Source: an uncultured Gammaproteobacteria bacterium
GTDB taxonomy: Bacteria; Patescibacteriota; Patescibacteriia; S139-126
Length of the DNA: 64,000 nucleotides
NCBI GenBank assembly: GCA_964493305.1
Contig: CAZBLW010000002.1
Span: 76,677-140,676 of the forward strand
Direction of reading: 5' to 3'
Part shown: positions 55,096 to 62,986 of the stretch, piece after piece
Layout: each line of letters starts with the position of its first letter
Position numbering within the stretch: the stretch's first letter is position 1
Notes under the pieces: generated by a model
The model's database searches: none
What the model was told of the DNA's origin: nothing
What the model saw: only the letters and a program-made list of their open reading frames with translations
Position numbers and translations under genes: made by a program

Positions 55096-56223
55096 TCATT
55101 TGATCAGCTTCAACAGATCCTCCTCGCCCTCGTATCCCCTCAATCTTCCGGACAAAACTCCGAGCCGATAATTTACTCCGTCGGTCATCAGCCGCCAATT
55201 GGTATTCTCAAGAACTTTCTTGAGAATCTTTTTTAAATCGTATTCGCTTGTCCGGCTTTCGCGGCCGGTTTTTGAATCCTGAACAGTGAACGGCACGACT
55301 ACATTTCTGTCTATTTCGGGATTGGCCAACTGCAGATGAATATAGCTTTCTTTTTCCAATGCTGGCGCAAGCAGTTTTTCCAGCTCTATAACAGTTAGTT
55401 TCTTTATTTTGGCAACCTTGTCGTAAAGTCCTTTGTTCTTATCTCTTTCCTTCCATTCTTCTACGAGTTTTCCCATTTGTTCCATGTTGTAGAGTTCCTG
55501 TCTCCATTTTTCGCCCTCTTCCTTGGAAAGGCAGAATTTTGCGCGGTCGGCCTCAAAATCATGATCGGGTTTTTCTTCTTGGTTTGCCGTACGCTTTAAT
55601 TCGTCGGTTTTGGCATAACCGCAGGATAGACACTTAAAATTCGTAATAAACTTGGTTTTGGTTGTTTTATCTTTAACTTCTAGGGCCTTGCCACACTTAG
55701 GGCAAAGGTCGGGTTTAGATTTCCATTCCTCGCCATTGTCATAGAATGCTCGGCGCGGCAGACAGCCGTTCGGACAGTCAAACATAAAAAGAACTCGATC
55801 CGGCTCATTCAGTCCTCCTGTCCAAAGATCTTTATCAAGAAGCTTCATTATGCTTCGGCATTTCAAGCACCGGACTTCCGCCGGAGGCTGCGCCGATTCA
55901 TATAATCTATCTTTGGCTTCATCTCTGGTCATCCATTCCCGGATCGTTTCTTCCTTGTGCAGATATCTATCGCCTTTTTCAAACATCAAACTCCAATCAC
56001 GAGCCATGCTGGATACAACTTCTATCATTCTCTGCGACGGTTTCTTGCCCATAATAAGCGGGGAGTGCTTCATTGGCTGAGAATGAAGTTTTACAAGACG
56101 GCGGCACCTTTCAACAGTATGGCGATCGTATAAATCGCCATAGTAAGTTGCGTCTTTAAGATTTTTTGTTGGCTCGTTCATTAATGTTTTTGGTTCTTCT
56201 TTTGAACTCTTTTTGTATGTCAA
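55096..56223 (-). CDS. Hypothetical zinc-ribbon protein (375 aa), last gene of the five-gene minus-strand operon
   Basis: Two CxxC...CxxC clusters (RCLKCRS...FDCPNGC; CPKCGK...FKCLSCGY). No known catalytic motif. Its start overlaps the upstream gene. Confidence 0.45.
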   Translation of the reverse strand: MTYKKSSKEEPKTLMNEPTKNLKDATYYGDLYDRHTVERCRRLVKLHSQPMKHSPLIMGKKPSQRMIEVVSSMARDWSLMFEKGDRYLHKEETIREWMTRDEAKDRLYESAQPPAEVRCLKCRSIMKLLDKDLWTGGLNEPDRVLFMFDCPNGCLPRRAFYDNGEEWKSKPDLCPKCGKALEVKDKTTKTKFITNFKCLSCGYAKTDELKRTANQEEKPDHDFEADRAKFCLSKEEGEKWRQELYNMEQMGKLVEEWKERDKNKGLYDKVAKIKKLTVIELEKLLAPALEKESYIHLQLANPEIDRNVVVPFTVQDSKTGRESRTSEYDLKKILKKVLENTNWRLMTDGVNYRLGVLSGRLRGYEGEEDLLKLIK

Positions 56224-56899
56224 AAGAATTGATTGGCTTTCTGAAAAGGAAGCACTTATTCTGATTCTCTTTCGGCACTACATAATCAATCAAGCTTTTG
56301 CCGTCTGGTGTGCCGCAGTGAATCTGGTGAACGAATTCTTTGCCGTACTTCTGTGGATCATTGAAATCGCAGTAGTATAAATAGTCCTCGGTATTTAATT
56401 GGAAAACATGCGAAGTCCCGTGGCCGAAGAAATATACCTCTTTTATGCTTTTATCACTCATGATCTTTTCTATATCCTTGAAATTAGCGTCCGGATAAAA
56501 AGAAAAATCCTGTCCTTTTGCTTTTAAATATTTAACGAGTGATTCTATTTCGCTTTTGAGAAAATTGTGCTTAATCCAAGCCTCCATCTTAAACCAGTCA
56601 GACCGCCCTAAAACAACAACTGCTTCTGCCGGAACGTTTTGTTTAAAGCCTTTTAAATACTTTCTCAAAAGATAGTTCTGAATCGGGAAAACTATTGCTG
56701 TTATGGGCGAAAGAAAAAACAACAAGAAGTCTTCTCGGAAATAAATAATACCGTAAATGACCACAAAAAAGAGATGAAGAAAGACAACCGAAAGCCAGCC
56801 ATGCCCTGTTGCCAGCAGGTATATTAAAGCCCCGACATAAAAAAAGAATTGGATAAGACTTGTGTCTGTTCTTCTGAGAAATTTTTTGAGGTCATTCAT
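56156..56899 (-). CDS. Two-TM membrane protein with a soluble domain carrying a His...Cys dyad (speculative caspase/CHAT-like), 247 aa
   Basis: Two N-terminal TM helices, then ...VYFFGHGTSHVFQL...HQIHCGTPDG, reminiscent of HG / Q-x-x-C-G caspase-fold dyads. Low confidence. Confidence 0.35.
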   Translation of the reverse strand: MNDLKKFLRRTDTSLIQFFFYVGALIYLLATGHGWLSVVFLHLFFVVIYGIIYFREDFLLFFLSPITAIVFPIQNYLLRKYLKGFKQNVPAEAVVVLGRSDWFKMEAWIKHNFLKSEIESLVKYLKAKGQDFSFYPDANFKDIEKIMSDKSIKEVYFFGHGTSHVFQLNTEDYLYYCDFNDPQKYGKEFVHQIHCGTPDGKSLIDYVVPKENQNKCFLFRKPINSFDIQKEFKRRTKNINERANKKS

Positions 56900-56919
56900 G
56901 CAATTTGCAGTAAAAATTA

Positions 56920-59160
56920 TTATTCTAGGCCGCGCTTCATTAATTCAATTTCTTCGTCGGTTCGTTTCTGCTCATAGGCAATTCTCTGATCTAAATAGTC
57001 TTCATATTCCTTAACAAATTTCTTAACTCGCTTATCAGAATCCTTTTTAAGATCTTGAATTTCCTGTTTTTTTGACTGATACGCCCTCACAAAGCCATCT
57101 TCGCCGGAAACAACGCCTGTTTGCGATAAAAATCCAAATAAATGACCGCTAACCTCTTTATATTCTTTGGTGCCAGCATATTGCTGAACCAAAGCCTTAA
57201 CAATAGGCCACAAAAATTTTCCTCCTTGGTATTTGCCAAGAATAGAAAAAACAATATCTCTGCTGTTTTTAGTTCCTTTCTTTATAAGGATAACCAATGA
57301 TTGCTCGAGGGTGGGACTAAAGCCAGGAAATATTTCCTCAAAGAGATGACTTACCTCCCATTTAAACAGCCAATTGTGTTTTTTGCCGCCATCACCATAC
57401 CAACTTAGTAATATGGGTACTAATATTTTTTCGTGTTGCCTCAATACCTCTCCAAGCTTATGAAAATTAAACGGAACGCCATCGTATCTGTCATTAATAT
57501 CTCTTTTTCTTTTTGATTTTGTTTCAACCCTTTTATGAAAAAAATCGATAATCTTTTTTGGATATTTTTCGGCAATAGGCTTCAATATTTCTTCCGCCCG
57601 ATAATCTATATCTGGAAGCAATAATAAACCATCGAGAATTACATCAAATTCTTTTTGGGTAAGATCTGGAAAAATTGTTGCGCCTTTAAACCATAGGTTA
57701 TCAACCCACCACGTGTCTTTAAGTTTTGCCAGCTCTTTGATAATTTCTAAAAAAACAGGCTTAAGATTCTTATGTTTTGCGTAATGATGTAAAACAGATC
57801 GAAGGATATTATTTAAAGCGCGAGTATCTTTAATATCTTTCGCCTTTTTAACAATCTTATTAAAAAGTTTATCATCGATCTCATCCACTACCACGAATAT
57901 AAAAGCCAAGACATACAGATACTTTCCTTCGTCCATCCACTTAGAAATTATCTTTTTTGCTTGTTGTTTTTTGCTGCTTTTCCAGAGACCAGATAATAAG
58001 CTAAGCAGAAATGGCGCAAGCTCTTTCTCGTTTTTTTCGATTAAAAGTATTCCGAGATTTGGTTTTCTATTGCCGAGTTCCGACAAAAATGTTTCAAAAT
58101 ATCCATAACTACCGGGCTCTGCCGCTGAATAATTTTTTACTACTTTCAAAATTTTTTGCCGCCATTCTTCAAAGTTCTCGTCAGAGATACTGGAAACAAA
58201 CTCGTTAATTTTTTGAGTACGAGTTTCCCTGTCTCTATTGAAATCATAGTCTGGGTCAAGCCTTCCATCGTATCCCACAAATACTCTAAACATGCTGTAG
58301 GCGGAGTTTGATCGGATCGCTTCTTCAAGTTCATTTAATTTTTGGGGTGGTTCTTTTTTAAACCGCCTGACAAACCATATTTTTTGTTCTTCGATATCCT
58401 GGATTATTTCATTCTCTGCATTCGGTAAAATTTCAAGATAAAAAGCTATGATATTATTTGTATCTTCTAATACCATCTGTTCCATATCATCGCCATAAAC
58501 ATGACTATGGGGTGTTTGGGTAGCTCCCTGTAGAGTCTGAAGGGTTTTTGTTTTTTGACCCAGATTGCTTGAAAGTGAATAGATTTTCTTGAGCAACGAT
58601 ATAGTACGACTGCGTATTTTTTTAAGATTATCGGAAACAATTAATGGACCCGAATGCAAAGTAAAAGTTCTATAGTCAGGCATTGAATGTCCTTCAAATG
58701 TTGGTTCGAGTAATTCTTTTGCTATTACAAACAAAATTTCAAGATTTTTGCTTATTCTTTTATCGCTCCAGCTTTCTACCTCATCCATTATTAAATTTTG
58801 TATTTTATATTCTATCTGCTGTAAAACAAATAAATTATACTGCGACAAATGCTCAAATGTTTTTAAAACTTCGGACTGAATAGCTTTGTTACCAGTTTGA
58901 TATAAACGCTCAAGCAATCCGATAATCTTTTTGGTTTCCAAATATTTAATTTTCCCTAGTATTTTTACGCATTGGATTAAAATATCTTCGTGAGATTTTC
59001 CATACAATTTTCCAAACCCCTTTAAATATGAAGCCTTCGCTTTCATCGGCTTTCTACTCACAACCAATTGAACAGCCTTAAATGCTTTATCGGGAGTAAT
59101 ATGGGCATACTCCTCAAGAAGTTCCAAATTATTAAAAATTTCATCGTTATTTTTTGACAT
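56920..59160 (-). CDS. Large all-alpha (HEAT/ARM-like?) hypothetical protein (746 aa)
   Basis: No TM helices and no Walker motifs. The helical-repeat character is judged by eye. Confidence 0.4.
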   Translation of the reverse strand: MSKNNDEIFNNLELLEEYAHITPDKAFKAVQLVVSRKPMKAKASYLKGFGKLYGKSHEDILIQCVKILGKIKYLETKKIIGLLERLYQTGNKAIQSEVLKTFEHLSQYNLFVLQQIEYKIQNLIMDEVESWSDKRISKNLEILFVIAKELLEPTFEGHSMPDYRTFTLHSGPLIVSDNLKKIRSRTISLLKKIYSLSSNLGQKTKTLQTLQGATQTPHSHVYGDDMEQMVLEDTNNIIAFYLEILPNAENEIIQDIEEQKIWFVRRFKKEPPQKLNELEEAIRSNSAYSMFRVFVGYDGRLDPDYDFNRDRETRTQKINEFVSSISDENFEEWRQKILKVVKNYSAAEPGSYGYFETFLSELGNRKPNLGILLIEKNEKELAPFLLSLLSGLWKSSKKQQAKKIISKWMDEGKYLYVLAFIFVVVDEIDDKLFNKIVKKAKDIKDTRALNNILRSVLHHYAKHKNLKPVFLEIIKELAKLKDTWWVDNLWFKGATIFPDLTQKEFDVILDGLLLLPDIDYRAEEILKPIAEKYPKKIIDFFHKRVETKSKRKRDINDRYDGVPFNFHKLGEVLRQHEKILVPILLSWYGDGGKKHNWLFKWEVSHLFEEIFPGFSPTLEQSLVILIKKGTKNSRDIVFSILGKYQGGKFLWPIVKALVQQYAGTKEYKEVSGHLFGFLSQTGVVSGEDGFVRAYQSKKQEIQDLKKDSDKRVKKFVKEYEDYLDQRIAYEQKRTDEEIELMKRGLE

Positions 59161-60106
59161 AATGGAGTAGCTTATCTGCTTCTTTCTTTACATATTCAAA
59201 AACGACCGGATGCCGGACGTCGGCTAAATTCTTATAAATTTGTAATTTCTGTTTATGCTCGGGGAATAAACTTAATAACTTATCGAGGTCAATTTTATTG
59301 ATAGTTTCATACAGGATCAGTAATCCCACGTCCTGCTTAACCTCATCCTTCACTAACTTAAAAATGTAGGTGTCTTTGTCTTTATAAATTAATTGCTGTG
59401 CATGCAGGCTCGAGAGAATATCATTCATCTGGCGATCGGTTAACTTCAACATTTTTGCGATAGCTTTGCGTTCAGATTTTGTCACCCTGCCAACCAGATA
59501 AATAATGCTGGCAACAAGGAGTATCTTGTCTTTTAGTTCTACTGCGATATCCAATATTTCCTTCGGTAAATCCAAAAATTCATTTTTCTTCGCAAGGTTT
59601 TTAATATGAATATAAAATTGGTCGACGAAATCATTCTTCCCGATCTTTAATGGCCGGAGATTCGGAATACGAATATTATTGCTGTTTGGTTTATTTGTTT
59701 TATTTAATATTTCAACATTGACATTGCTAAAGTGATACCACCATATTTGCGAATCGTTTTGTTTTTCTGACTCTTCGGCAATATTAGCCACTACAAATAA
59801 AATTGTTGGGAGATTAATTTCTTTACAAAATTCAATTAATTTACGAGAGCTGACATAGGTGCTATTTTCAATTTTTTTCTCGGAACCTTTTAACTGGAAG
59901 AAAACCACATTATTTAAATACTTGCCTCGCATTTTCACATTTGGTTCGGGTTCCCTTAAGCGCAAGAATCCATCTGTGTCAGGAGTGTTATCTTTTATGC
60001 CGTGAAATTGTAAATCAAACTTATCTCCATGTTTATTCATGAAGTAATCACCAACGATAGATACCGCCTTTTCATCAAGCCGATTTTGTTTATTGTATTT
60101 ACTCAT
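59147..60106 (-). CDS. Hypothetical protein with an N-terminal PD-(D/E)xK-like (restriction-endonuclease-fold, DUF4365-like) region and a C-terminal wHTH-like region (319 aa)
   Basis: ...PDTDGFLRL...VVFFQLKGSEK... suggests a D...(Q/E)xK nuclease core. The C-terminus is helix-turn-helix-like. It overlaps its neighbours by 8-14 nt, which suggests an operon. Confidence 0.35.
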   Translation of the reverse strand: MSKYNKQNRLDEKAVSIVGDYFMNKHGDKFDLQFHGIKDNTPDTDGFLRLREPEPNVKMRGKYLNNVVFFQLKGSEKKIENSTYVSSRKLIEFCKEINLPTILFVVANIAEESEKQNDSQIWWYHFSNVNVEILNKTNKPNSNNIRIPNLRPLKIGKNDFVDQFYIHIKNLAKKNEFLDLPKEILDIAVELKDKILLVASIIYLVGRVTKSERKAIAKMLKLTDRQMNDILSSLHAQQLIYKDKDTYIFKLVKDEVKQDVGLLILYETINKIDLDKLLSLFPEHKQKLQIYKNLADVRHPVVFEYVKKEADKLLHYVKK

Positions 60107-60359
60107 CGCTTTTTAATTTTTCTGAAATAATTATTTGAATTTCTTTATCCATTTCTGGAGTTCTAGATATTTCTGTTTTTTCTCCGCATCCGAAACAAAC
60201 CCTGTATGTATGGGCGTTCAACATTCCTGCGCCGGGGTTCATAATAAAGATCTCCTCCCATTTGTGGGAATGTTCATGCTGTTCTGCAGATGGTTTGCCT
60301 GAAAAAGCCTTATTTATTTCGGATAACTTATTAAATTCTTGTGGGTATAAATATCGCAT
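60099..60359 (-). CDS. Small zinc-ribbon-like protein (86 aa), first gene of the operon
   Basis: ...HEHSHKWEE...RVCFGCGEK... Overlaps the next gene by 8 nt. Confidence 0.35.
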   Translation of the reverse strand: MRYLYPQEFNKLSEINKAFSGKPSAEQHEHSHKWEEIFIMNPGAGMLNAHTYRVCFGCGEKTEISRTPEMDKEIQIIISEKLKSDE

Positions 60360-60451
60360 ATTATTTAGAGGTTTTATTCCGCAATATTAGCGGTAATCAT
60401 TGGCTGGGGATAACTAAGACTTGCTGTTTAGGTTATCTTTAGGTATTATAT

Positions 60452-61084
60452 ATGTGTATGGTAAATAAATCAAGTGTATGGACAAATAAACCATCCAAAC
60501 GGCAGGCTGAAATTCTTGAGTTCATCTCTAAATTCCAGAAAGATAAGAACTATTCCCCGTCGCTCGCTGAGATAGCCGAGCATTTTGACGTTTCCATACC
60601 AACCATCCATCAACATGTTTCTTATCTTCAGAAAAAGAAATTACTCACCGCCCACAAAGGAAAGAAACGATCAATACAACCATTTAATGATCATAAACAG
60701 TATCTGGTTGAAATCCCGCTTATGGGAGTTATCTCCGCAGGGGGTCCTATTGAAGCTATCAGCAACCCCGAACCAATCGAGATTCCGCGCAGTATGCTTT
60801 CAAAGGGCGCGAATCATTATGCTTTAAAAGTTTCCGGCGTGAGCATGATTGAAGAAGGAATTTCAGATGGAGACATAGTCATAGTCCGCGAACAACCTTA
60901 CGTTGATGACGGCGAAAAAGCAGTCGCTTATCTTCCGGACGAGAATAAGGTCACCCTCAAAAAACTATATCGAGAAAAAAATCGAGTAAAGTTAGTTCCC
61001 GCAAATAAAACCATGAAGCCATTCTATGAAAAGAATGTCGAGGTGCAGGGAAAGGTTATTGGAGTTTTAAGAAAAGAGGTTTAA
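60452..61084 (+). CDS. lexA: LexA-family repressor (wHTH plus S24 peptidase)
   Basis: N-terminal ...KRQAEILEFI...GYSPSLAEIAEHFDVS wHTH. Ala-Gly cleavage site (ISAGGPIEA). Ser/Lys dyad (VSGVSMIEEG ... KVTLKKL). Divergent from the 60359 operon. Confidence 0.75.
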   Translation: MCMVNKSSVWTNKPSKRQAEILEFISKFQKDKNYSPSLAEIAEHFDVSIPTIHQHVSYLQKKKLLTAHKGKKRSIQPFNDHKQYLVEIPLMGVISAGGPIEAISNPEPIEIPRSMLSKGANHYALKVSGVSMIEEGISDGDIVIVREQPYVDDGEKAVAYLPDENKVTLKKLYREKNRVKLVPANKTMKPFYEKNVEVQGKVIGVLRKEV

Positions 61085-61108
61085 AAACTGGTATAATTAA
61101 AGTAGTAT

Positions 61109-62986
61109 ATGGACGAAATTTTCAAAATATACAATTCACTCTGCACTTCATATGCTGATAAAAAGGCTCTTATCAAGAAGCTTTATAGTTTTTTTACGAC
61201 GAAACCAGAAATTGAAGATTCTAGAGATGACTTCCTGTACAAGAATTTAAAAACCGGAAATAATATAGACCCTTTAAAAATCTTCCAGTTGATTGGGCTT
61301 GTTCACCAGAAAAGCAAAGAAACAGAAAAAATAGTTAACACTGACAAAAGAAAACATTTCGGAATTTACTACACGGATTATTCCATAGCTCGATTGATAG
61401 CTAAGGAAAGTTTAAGCGGATCGGAAATTGATAAGATTGCAGAATATAAATTTCTTGAGCCGTGTGTTGGGGTAGGAATTTTTATTATTGCCTATTTAGA
61501 CGAGGTATTAGACAGGTTGAAAACGATTAACAAAAAAGTCGTACAAAAAATAATTAATCAGATATATTTTGCAGATATAGACGATGAAGCGATTGATATT
61601 CTTATAAACATAATTCCTCACTATATAAGGTCTAAATACGGTATTAAGATTACTGTACTATCGGAAAATTATTACAAGGGCGATGTCCTTTTCGAGGGTA
61701 AAGACAACGAAATTAGTAAGGTTAATTTGAAAGAAGTATTCGGGATTAACGATGGTTTCGATGTTGTTTTAACCAATCCACCATACAAGCTTTTAAAGGC
61801 AAATGGAAATAAATATAGAAATGAACTAAATGAGAACAAATATGCGCTTGATATAAAAAAGGTTATCGACTTTGTTAAGAAAAATAAAGTATATCAATTC
61901 AACCAAGGCACTCTTAATTATTACAAGATTTTTCTTGAGGAGATACTTGAACAATATACCCATTCTAATAGTAAAATCGGGGCTATTATTCCGATAACTC
62001 TTTTAAATGATAAGCAGAGTGAACTTTTGAGAAAAAGGATAATAAATAAATATAAATTACTGAAGATTTATATTATTCCGGAGAAAAATGAGTTTTTCCC
62101 AGATATTTCACAAGCTTTTTGTTTCTTTGCTCTTGATAAAAGTAATCCCGGAAATGTTATTAAAATAAACCCCCGAGTAGTTAGCTCCCAGGACTTTAAA
62201 AATGAAGGGGTTGAGGTTAGTGTTAGCCATATTGAAAAGATCAGCGATACGGCACCTATTGTTATTGAAAATGAGATCGGTTGGAGGATTCTAAAAAAGT
62301 TGAGTGTATTACCGAAATTAGGCACACTAAACTCAATTTGCAATGCAAGGGGTGAACTTGACTTAACACTCGACAAAGATTTTGTAACGAAGAAAAAAAC
62401 GTCCCTTCCGCTTCTTAGAGGAAACAACGTCAGTGAATTTTCTTACTCTGCTGGCGAGTACTACACTAACGAAAAGTTCATATCAAAATTAAGTGAAAAA
62501 CAAAAATACATTCTCAGAGAGAGAATCGTATGCCAACAAATCTCTAATATTCACCTGGAGAAACGTCTGAAATTTACAAAGATTCCCGGAAATGTAATTT
62601 TAGGAAACTCTTGCAACTTTTTAACTTTTGAAGAATCTCTATTTAAAAATCAGGACGTTAGCTTAGATTATCTGTTGGGTGTGCTGAATTCTTTGCTGTT
62701 AAATTGGAGGTTTAAAGTCACAAACTCTAATAACCACATCAGCAATTATGAACTTGCCGAGCTTCCGATTGCAATCCCATCAAAAAACGACAAAAGGGAG
62801 ATTGAAAAACTCGTACATTCAATAAAAGATAAAGGAAGGACTGAAGACATATATAAATTGAACCAGAAAGTTTTTGATTTATATGGTTTGGATAAAGAGG
62901 AGGTCGATTATATTCTCGGCAAGCACAAAAAGGCGTTGGAATCGTTTTTAAGCGTTCGAAGTCCACAATTAGTTTATGGTGCATAA
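61109..62986 (+). CDS. N6-adenine (or N4-C) DNA methyltransferase, gamma-class (Eco57I-like), with a C-terminal target-recognition region
   Basis: Motif X HFGIYYTDYSIARLIA, motif I LEPCVGVGIF, motif IV VVLTNPPYKLL. 625 aa. No nuclease domain was recognised. Confidence 0.7.
   Translation: MDEIFKIYNSLCTSYADKKALIKKLYSFFTTKPEIEDSRDDFLYKNLKTGNNIDPLKIFQLIGLVHQKSKETEKIVNTDKRKHFGIYYTDYSIARLIAKESLSGSEIDKIAEYKFLEPCVGVGIFIIAYLDEVLDRLKTINKKVVQKIINQIYFADIDDEAIDILINIIPHYIRSKYGIKITVLSENYYKGDVLFEGKDNEISKVNLKEVFGINDGFDVVLTNPPYKLLKANGNKYRNELNENKYALDIKKVIDFVKKNKVYQFNQGTLNYYKIFLEEILEQYTHSNSKIGAIIPITLLNDKQSELLRKRIINKYKLLKIYIIPEKNEFFPDISQAFCFFALDKSNPGNVIKINPRVVSSQDFKNEGVEVSVSHIEKISDTAPIVIENEIGWRILKKLSVLPKLGTLNSICNARGELDLTLDKDFVTKKKTSLPLLRGNNVSEFSYSAGEYYTNEKFISKLSEKQKYILRERIVCQQISNIHLEKRLKFTKIPGNVILGNSCNFLTFEESLFKNQDVSLDYLLGVLNSLLLNWRFKVTNSNNHISNYELAELPIAIPSKNDKREIEKLVHSIKDKGRTEDIYKLNQKVFDLYGLDKEEVDYILGKHKKALESFLSVRSPQLVYGA

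Follow-up and report, generated by a model that had tools for sequence, protein, structure and literature searches.

A predicted nuclease and an alpha-solenoid protein form the conserved core of a mosaic gene block in a Patescibacteria defence island

In a window of 64,000 nucleotides from a Patescibacteria (candidate phyla radiation, CPR) genome (contig CAZBLW010000002.1, positions 76,677 to 140,676), five open reading frames (ORFs), here called g1 to g5, follow one another on the minus strand between positions 55096 and 60359, next to a lexA gene and two DNA methyltransferase (MTase) genes. An initial annotation, made from the letters alone, had proposed that the five genes form one operon and a candidate novel defence or stress module under possible SOS control; the question raised by this locus is whether genes packed so tightly indeed belong to a single system. 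Our comparison of related loci indicates that the block, which lies in a defence island, is put together from modules inherited separately, the pair g2-g3 being one inherited cassette. We consider it rather probable, from sequence and by analogy, that this pair is a sensor-effector defence cassette of the abortive-infection type, in which a solenoid protein works with swappable toxic effectors and to which LexA and g1 are local additions. The genes concerned are the following.

g1, 60359..60099, minus strand: 86 residues with an HxH...CxxC pattern; first gene past the divergent promoter
g2, 60106..59147, minus strand: 319 residues, predicted DUF4365-type PD-(D/E)xK nuclease followed by an adaptor domain; candidate effector
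g3, 59160..56920, minus strand: 746 residues, predicted HEAT/ARM-like alpha-solenoid; conserved component, putative sensor or regulator
g4, 56899..56156, minus strand: 247 residues, hydrophobic N-terminus followed by a soluble domain with GHG and HCG motifs; independent gene
g5, minus strand: 56223..55096 as an ORF with a TTG start (375 residues), revised to 56181..55096 with an ATG start (361 residues); independent gene
lexA, 60452..61084, plus strand: S24 autoproteolytic repressor, divergent from g1-g2-g3

All five minus-strand ORFs are present in the ORF list of the window where the initial annotation had placed them, and they are as tightly packed as it had described: g1 and g2 overlap by 8 nucleotides and g2 and g3 by 14, g4 and g5 overlap too, and the gap between g3 and g4 is 20 nucleotides. 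Within the block no minus-strand terminator was predicted, weak promoter-like sites were predicted, and tRNA and Rfam scans did not find any RNA element, the closest RNA gene being a tRNA-Arg at 53408-53482. Hidden Markov model (HMM) searches of the five proteins against Pfam, NCBIfam, PHROGs and PADLOC gave only DUF4365 for g2, a weak OloA match for g3 (E = 2e-5) and zinc-ribbon noise for g5. The statement that none of the proteins carries an assignable domain needs some correction: g2 reaches the DUF4365 cut-off (24.3 bits), and g3 has its weak OloA match.

Only g2 and g3 are kept together

The comparison set consisted of 134 loci encoding a g3 relative (designated by L and a number), drawn from genomes, metagenomes and exact-protein look-ups; the window proteins were compared with these loci by tblastn and the window DNA with the closest loci by blastn. 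We observed that g2 has a match in at least 43 loci (of the first 129 searched). For g4 there are two matches in the 134 loci (L130, and L052 where the gene lies on the opposite strand, convergent to g3), for g1 and for LexA a single one, in both cases L131, and for g5 none. At the DNA level, L132 and L009 align with the window over 56919-60115, which is exactly g2 plus g3. L130, whose g3 is 90% identical, aligns over 56187-60115 (g2, g3 and g4) and has a type I restriction-modification (RM) system upstream of the cassette, and L131 (89% identical) aligns over 56915-61097 (lexA, g1, g2 and g3) and has a HinfI-type RM system beyond lexA. Because these breakpoints fall at gene borders, g2-g3 is the inherited cassette, to which lexA with g1, g4 and g5 are separate additions.

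A single novel multi-component system made of g1 to g5 under SOS control would account for the common strand, the overlaps and very short gaps, the lack of a predicted internal terminator on that strand and the fact that, in a clade with at least 90% identity, g4 comes after g3 in four or more contigs. The synteny largely refutes it, since among the relatives only g2 and g3 stay together, L130 adding g4 only and L131 lexA and g1 only, and since the homology breaks at the borders of g2-g3, with g5 in none of the g3 loci, g1 in one and g4 in two, once on the opposite strand. In addition, the homologues of g4 (143 or more) and of g5 (401 or more) are found in unrelated contexts, such as operons of a cyclic-oligonucleotide-based antiphage signalling system (CBASS), of NotI RM or of a KAP NTPase, and the GC content of g5 is foreign. 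We regard the five-gene system as very improbable.

A predicted DUF4365-type nuclease beside a HEAT-like solenoid

The g2 protein scores 24.3 bits against Pfam PF14280 (DUF4365), which equals the cut-off of this family (E = 3.5e-5), and its relatives match DUF4365 far better, with E-values down to 3.5e-13. Candidate active-site residues of g2 are E12, D45-G46 and Q71-x-K73; when split and fused relatives are aligned, D45 does not vary, Q71 and K73 are at least 90% conserved, and an acidic residue of the first helix is also conserved. In TmuRE, the DUF4365 nuclease of a short prokaryotic Argonaute, DNase-associated (SPARDA) system, Q62 and K64 were proposed as active site and were mutated (Q62A/K64A) to give the inactive control, and the SPARDA DUF4365 domain is a non-specific collateral DNase (PMC10810196). 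The Q71-x-K73 pair of g2 corresponds to Q62/K64 of TmuRE. Judged by its sequence, g2 is a DUF4365-type PD-(D/E)xK nuclease with a conserved catalytic motif. Its residues from about 165 to 319 form a predicted C-terminal helical or winged helix-turn-helix (wHTH)-like adaptor domain, in which Pfam detects a weak helix-turn-helix (HTH) match; an HMM built from this domain matches the N-terminal extension of solenoid proteins of 870 residues (E from 1e-12 to 1e-14). The PD-(D/E)xK-like N-terminus and wHTH C-terminus first read in g2 are in this way supported, in that g2 resembles a nuclease and has a tail of helical or wHTH type.

The predicted structure of g3 (predicted local distance difference test, pLDDT, of 91) is a HEAT-like alpha-solenoid, in keeping with the large all-alpha protein described before, and its structural matches are only generic. 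We did not find any relative of the solenoid family in Pfam, NCBIfam or the PDB, and a PDB sequence search with the family profiles of g3, g4 and g5 gave nothing significant. Among the 5,027 models of PADLOC the sole match of g3 is OloA (PDLC03925, E = 2e-5, 22.1 bits), and this alignment is partial, residues 337-543 of g3 facing positions 101-323 of the 596 of the profile. Across solenoid family members at 23-90% identity, the non-helical loop G682-VVxGExGF-690 and the arginines R183 and R544 are invariant, the loop being the only invariant block across the family. Such a GVVxGExGF loop with two invariant arginines is unexpected for a passive repeat scaffold.

One solenoid with exchangeable effectors

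Fusion and fission events were counted in 92 distinct complete g3 homologues, 46 of which are standalone while the other 46 bear an N-terminal extension. In all 39 standalone copies with a complete upstream ORF, an upstream gene of 255-350 codons overlaps or abuts the start of the solenoid gene; a conserved gene downstream of the standalone homologues was not found. The domains met in front of the solenoid are listed below.

N-terminal extension, RelA_SpoT: 28 of 46 (Pfam)
N-terminal extension, DUF4365: 11 of 46 (Pfam), 14 of 46 with a family-specific HMM
Separate partner, PIN_12/DUF4935: 14 of 40 (Pfam)
Separate partner, DUF4365: 13 of 40 (Pfam)
Separate partner, RelA_SpoT: 1 of 40 (Pfam)

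The fused DUF4365 forms align along the entire g2, including its C-terminal region (about 165-319). A third split point, giving an adaptor-plus-solenoid protein, was observed in L069, L076 and L016, where the proteins of 870 residues start with a g2-type C-terminal domain. Effector and solenoid almost certainly act as one protein, to judge from these arrangements. Since relatives pair PIN_12 or RelA/SpoT effectors with the same solenoid, the solenoid is the constant part and the toxic enzyme the exchangeable one; and because the effector varies while the solenoid stays, the latter would be the part that bears specificity.

Upstream of the adaptor-plus-solenoid variants, proteins of 230 residues are encoded (L016 8902-9591, L069 873-1562, L076 36-716), for which a Pfam match was not found; they may represent a further, unrecognised effector type. 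We also considered an adaptor common to the RelA/SpoT and PIN partners and rejected it, since the matches were weak (E from 0.1 to 0.3) and not significant, albeit at consistent C-terminal positions in the PIN partners. On plasmid pC6.5d of Rhizobium rhizogenes (L142 5101-9033), a single protein of 1310 residues has a RelA_SpoT domain joined to the solenoid and ends in a poly-gamma-glutamate hydrolase domain.

Distribution and genomic neighbourhood of the pair

A profile search with the g3 family in 1.84 billion cluster representatives (50% identity) gave 1,540 matches at E <= 1e-3, 779 of them at E <= 1e-30, with lengths clustering near 750-810 and 960-1090 residues. A pattern search returned, for the patterns used, 42 matches among 185,579 species representatives, a patchy distribution that resembles the outcome of horizontal transfer. 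The bacterial hosts comprise many Patescibacteria lineages, Nitrospirae, Delta-, Alpha- and Gammaproteobacteria, Bacteroidota, Cyanobacteria and Anaerolineae, and the archaeal ones Promethearchaeota, Methanosarcinales and Micrarchaeota. Neither 50,697 phage records nor IMG/VR yielded a homologue. In cultured organisms the copies are annotated as "hypothetical protein" beside a "PIN domain-containing protein"; the copy of Legionella adelaidensis adjoins a site-specific integrase, the Pseudanabaena galeata pair is plasmid-borne, and the Rhizobium copy is flanked by transposases of insertion sequences (IS), an integrase, a VapBC pair and a SIR2 family gene. The proteins of the PIN-type pair in L. 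adelaidensis NCTC12735 are WP_058461130.1 and WP_058461131.1, those of P. galeata CCNP1313 are WP_281010097.1 and WP_281010098.1, and Sphingobium sp. YG1 has a RelA/SpoT fusion.

In a scan of the nearest neighbours with Pfam and PADLOC (134 proteins, 53 distinct loci), the commonest families all belong to restriction-modification: Eco57I/type IIG, ResIII, N6_Mtase, HsdR (type I), GmrSD, DpnII and EcoRI methylase. At individual loci the adjoining genes encode an EcoRI-type MTase with GmrSD/HNH, a type I RM system (with HARE-HTH and AbiEii), an N6_N4 MTase and ResIII pair, a type III-like RM system, or a type IIG enzyme and McrBC. These RM neighbours, together with the MTases of the window itself, support the defence-island context that had been proposed.

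With such neighbours, g2-g3 might be an accessory or type IV-like restriction device working with the adjacent RM system, where a Mrr-like nuclease with its wHTH recognises modified or unmodified DNA and is regulated by g3. Indeed, at several loci the pair lies directly downstream of, and co-oriented with, type I RM, type III-like RM or GmrSD-plus-MTase genes, the D...QxK motif resembles that of Mrr, and the weak HTH match is in the C-terminus of g2. The upstream RM type differs at every locus, however, and the C-terminal domain of g2 behaves as a linker that is kept in the fusions. Moreover, on the same solenoid either PIN_12, from the VapC-like group of PIN nucleases, or a RelA/SpoT nucleotidyltransferase can take the place of the nuclease, and a family role in reading DNA modification is therefore unlikely; we hold this restriction reading to be improbable.

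Another possibility is a toxin-antitoxin-like addiction module, in which the solenoid would neutralise the toxin and the pair would stabilise islands or plasmids rather than fight phages. PIN and RelA/SpoT are classic toxin domains, the g2 and g3 genes are tightly coupled for translation, and homologues are located on plasmids and near integrases, IS elements and a VapBC pair, all of which would agree with it. Yet in half of the distinct homologues effector and solenoid are fused into one chain, which is incompatible with addiction by differential stability; a conserved solenoid of 750 residues far exceeds the size that an antitoxin needs, and the neighbours are mainly RM systems, not plasmid maintenance genes. 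The border with abortive-infection defence is itself blurred, as in CapRel. We consider addiction as such unlikely, while giving it more weight than the restriction reading.

LexA, g1 and their shared intergenic region

The product of the divergent gene matches TIGR00498 with 160.2 bits (cut-off 110.95, E = 4.6e-47) as well as PF01726 (LexA_DNA_bind) and PF00717 (Peptidase_S24), and its translation contains the Ala-Gly cleavage site (ISAGGP) and the Ser and Lys residues (GVSM, LKKL); it is, as had been read from the sequence, a bona fide LexA, transcribed on the plus strand and away from g1-g3 on the minus strand. In L131 a lexA gene 70% identical is present at the same position, and the homology stops 13 nucleotides past the lexA stop codon. 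A g1 homologue (83% identity) was found in L131 only, where lexA is also present, and is absent from the other 133 loci; g1 has no family match in Pfam, NCBIfam, PHROGs or PADLOC. This pattern is that of a local regulatory add-on, lexA and g1 being co-inherited with each other rather than with g2-g3.

Two blocks of the lexA-g1 spacer are fully conserved between the window and L131, the remainder having diverged with insertions and deletions:

candidate operator/promoter block 1, 60402-60415, GGCTGGGGATAACT, 100% identical in L131
candidate operator/promoter block 2, 60425-60445, TGTTTAGGTTATCTTTAGGTA, 100% identical in L131
predicted sigma70-like promoter TTGATT-17-TATAAT, 60473..60445, minus strand, overlapping the lexA start

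Two repeats are found in the blocks, the inverted GATAAC-N17-GTTATC, which occurs nowhere else in the window (0.02 occurrences expected), and the direct TTAGGT-N5-TTAGGT, and the blocks overlap the predicted divergent promoters of lexA and g1. LexA control of g1-g2-g3 is plausible because of the predicted promoter and the two conserved intergenic blocks, and in this genome and its close relative L131 the g1-g2-g3 cassette is probably derepressed by DNA damage. We rejected an S24/LexA repressor as family-wide partner of the solenoid, since only L131 and L006 have one, that of L006 being an independent S24 gene directly upstream of a fused DUF4365-solenoid homologue. The SOS control first suggested is thus plausible at this locus, with its divergent LexA and conserved putative operators, but is not a trait of the family.

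The genuine divergent lexA and the conserved intergenic element would equally suit a LexA-regulated housekeeping operon for DNA repair or stress, with g2 as a repair nuclease. The patchy, transfer-like distribution of the family, its location in a variable island, the swapping of effectors, the presence of a LexA-type gene at 2 of 134 loci and the lack of any housekeeping family match in Pfam and NCBIfam all speak against this, and we find it scarcely credible.

S24/LexA-type repressors were observed beside three Patescibacteria defence cassettes, namely CBASS (L140 2943-3578), the fused DUF4365-solenoid gene (L006 7392-7994) and the window genes (60452-61084). This recurrence suggests a damage-responsive control layer in Patescibacteria defence.

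The trailing genes g4 and g5 and the surroundings of the block

At least 143 homologues of g4 were collected; in 58 of them G159-H160-G161 and H194-C195-G196 are invariant, as are further His and Cys residues. CHAT is the commonest sub-threshold Pfam match (25 of the 58, best E = 0.0014), none of the 58 reaches the 24-bit cut-off of CHAT PF12770, g4 itself giving E = 0.26, and PADLOC (Borvo included) has no match for g4. The soluble part has about 150 residues, and the hydrophobic N-terminal region, read by eye, putatively spans the membrane. With CHAT/clan CD peptidases (e.g. Borvo, SAVED-CHAT) g4 shares the invariant His-Gly and Cys-Gly after hydrophobic strands and the defence-island setting; it differs from them by its sub-threshold matches, its small soluble part and its putative membrane-spanning N-terminus. 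The His-Gly...Cys-Gly dyad noticed at the outset is thereby confirmed as invariant, and the caspase/CHAT-like guess is backed by the recurrent matches: g4 is probably a membrane-anchored CHAT/clan-CD-like protease. Alternatively, its additional invariant His and Cys could form a metal site. It directly follows g3 only in the clade with at least 90% identity (at least four contigs, L130 included). Elsewhere it comes after a CBASS operon in L140 (7001-7738), in the order S24 repressor, DUF2188, SAVED, CD-NTase and then g4, and in L139 it is paired with g5, which it precedes; in both L139 and L140 a small HTH_19 gene follows g4.

For g5 we placed the start at the ATG at 56181, because the homology with L130 ends at 56187 and the g4-g5 pair of L139 has the same 26-nucleotide overlap. 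At least 401 homologues were found, mostly in Patescibacteria, five of them on IMG/VR contigs. In the g5 model (pLDDT 90.1) a long helical hairpin is combined with two zinc ribbons and, at the C-terminus, a ferredoxin-like domain; a structure search with this model gave no informative match. This gene is the last one behind unlike defence operons (L135-L138, L139): HpaII with Vsr and a Cap4-like nuclease, NotI with a Dam MTase, or type III RM with ClpP and a KAP NTPase. The GC-rich character attributed to the whole block applies to g5 only, with a GC content of 0.444 (0.47 at third codon positions) that tops the 36 ORFs of the window (mean 0.364, standard deviation 0.034), whereas g2 (0.343) and g3 (0.346) are average. 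By their occurrence, g4 and g5 are independent, widespread Patescibacteria genes which trail other defence operons and are here merely downstream.

Beyond lexA the window contains two MTase genes, which overlap by 11 nucleotides:

m6A MTase, 61109-62986, plus strand: Eco57I and TaqI_C domains (PF07669, PF12950)
permuted m5C MTase, 62976 to beyond 64000, plus strand: PF00145, running off the window

The first matches TIGR02987 (E = 2.4e-97, 326.8 bits, under the cut-off of 353.5) and PADLOC MTase_II (5e-72), and the second PF00145 (2.9e-78) in two stretches, motifs IX-X preceding motif I; the N6-adenine MTase and permuted C5-MTase reported for this place are accordingly both there. An m6A plus m5C two-methylase arrangement is that of Alw26I/Eco31I/Esp3I-type IIS RM systems, and the pair resembles the methylation half of such a system, whose endonuclease is not in the window and would have to be encoded beyond it. 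On the other side, the tRNA-Arg(GCG) at 53408-53482 (minus strand) separates recG from the variable region (53.5-64 kb), and an island may have inserted there; the part examined showed no integrase.

Relation of the pair to known defence systems

Among named systems Olokun (Millman et al. 2022) comes closest to the pair. It is reported to combine an adaptin-like protein, OloA, with a PD-(D/E)xK nuclease, OloB, in a 2:2 complex, and according to the same preprint activity in the nuclease-NTPase systems studied there depends on the nuclease active site (bioRxiv 10.1101/2025.07.10.664194). Like Olokun, g2-g3 consists of two adjacent genes for a large adaptin/HEAT-like helical protein and a PD-(D/E)xK nuclease with an extra helical docking domain. 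This domain is C-terminal to the nuclease in g2 but N-terminal in OloB, and the g2-g3 family has traits that the literature examined does not describe for Olokun, namely PIN_12 or RelA/SpoT domains as effectors and frequent fusion into a single chain. The pair is, in its predicted architecture, Olokun-like without being an Olokun member. The view that the combination cannot be mapped to a described system has to be tempered to this extent: the core pair approximates the Olokun architecture, but with a weak, partial OloA match and no OloB it is not a member.

With SPARDA, where a DUF4365 collateral non-specific nuclease is unleashed by a separate sensor (PMC10810196, PMC12205087), g2 shares the effector domain of the DUF4365-APAZ short Argonautes, with its D...QxK motif. 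Unlike SPARDA, g2-g3 has a HEAT solenoid as putative sensor, not APAZ and a short prokaryotic Argonaute, and it has no guide nucleic acid component.

DSR2, CapRel (a fused toxic small alarmone synthetase, toxSAS) and Avs are sensor-effector proteins of abortive infection made of one or two chains. Like the g2-g3 family they have the toxic enzyme at the N-terminal side and a long sensor of repeats or helices at the C-terminal side, with effector domains that can be exchanged. The likeness to CapRel extends to the RelA/SpoT domain found on g3 relatives. Neither sequence similarity nor specific structural similarity was found between g3 and the sensors of DSR2, CapRel or Avs; unlike Avs, g2-g3 has no NTPase, and unlike DSR2 it has no SIR2.

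Proposed mechanism

The sensor-effector defence reading of g2-g3 can be put as a sequence of steps. The C-terminal adaptor of g2 would dock on g3, as the fusions suggest, and the solenoid would keep the nuclease inactive. If Olokun, DSR2, CapRel and Avs are taken as models, g3 would then sense a cue from the phage, for which a phage protein bound along its length is the likeliest candidate, and would release or activate the nuclease. The freed nuclease would cut DNA, possibly also RNA, indiscriminately, and the infection would be aborted. Upstream, LexA and g1 with their overlapping divergent promoters would allow the cassette to be derepressed by DNA damage. What the analysis shows is the gene structure, the limits of synteny, fusion and fission, the swapping of effectors, the neighbourhood, the class of fold and the conserved catalytic motif; we infer the physical complex, the trigger, the abortive outcome and the LexA control from sequence features and from these analogies.

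Several points weigh against this picture. The defence role of the family is putative, and an addiction module of the toxin-antitoxin kind would account for this architecture too. The predominance of RM genes among the neighbours is a matter of raw counts rather than of enrichment over a matched control. The OloA profile aligns weakly (22 bits) and over only 223 of its 596 positions, and at E <= 1e-3 it matches 2 of 22 family members; the OloB profile matches none of 40 partner proteins, and g2 has no PADLOC match at E <= 1. The invariant loop with R183 and R544 hints at a specific ligand or catalytic site, which a mere protein sensor would not explain. As to LexA, the window holds no further copies of the candidate operators beyond chance, and an S24 repressor adjoins only 2 of the 134 related loci (L131 and L006).

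Significance

The g3 relatives may, as a more tentative proposal that we hold with less than even confidence, represent an uncharacterised immune-sensor superfamily of at least 1,540 clusters, in which a GVVxGExGF solenoid presides over nuclease, PIN or RelA/SpoT effectors, which is at most a distant sister of OloA and which is wired to a LexA-type repressor in some Patescibacteria, where it would be armed by DNA damage or by the induction of a prophage. It has no strong match in PADLOC v2, DefenseFinder not having been searched.

For the reading of such loci, the block teaches that overlapping genes on the same strand of a defence island need not constitute a single system. If g2-g3 is a true defence system, a large unannotated family would join the known repertoire. 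Its members are found both in organisms from which few defences are known (CPR bacteria, DPANN and Asgard-type archaea) and in genera that can be cultivated, namely Legionella, Pseudanabaena, Rhizobium and Sphingobium. The family would then offer a natural experiment in effector swapping on one scaffold, with a DNase, a PIN nuclease and an alarmone-type nucleotidyltransferase, and a way to approach the question of what is sensed by adaptin proteins of the Olokun-like kind.

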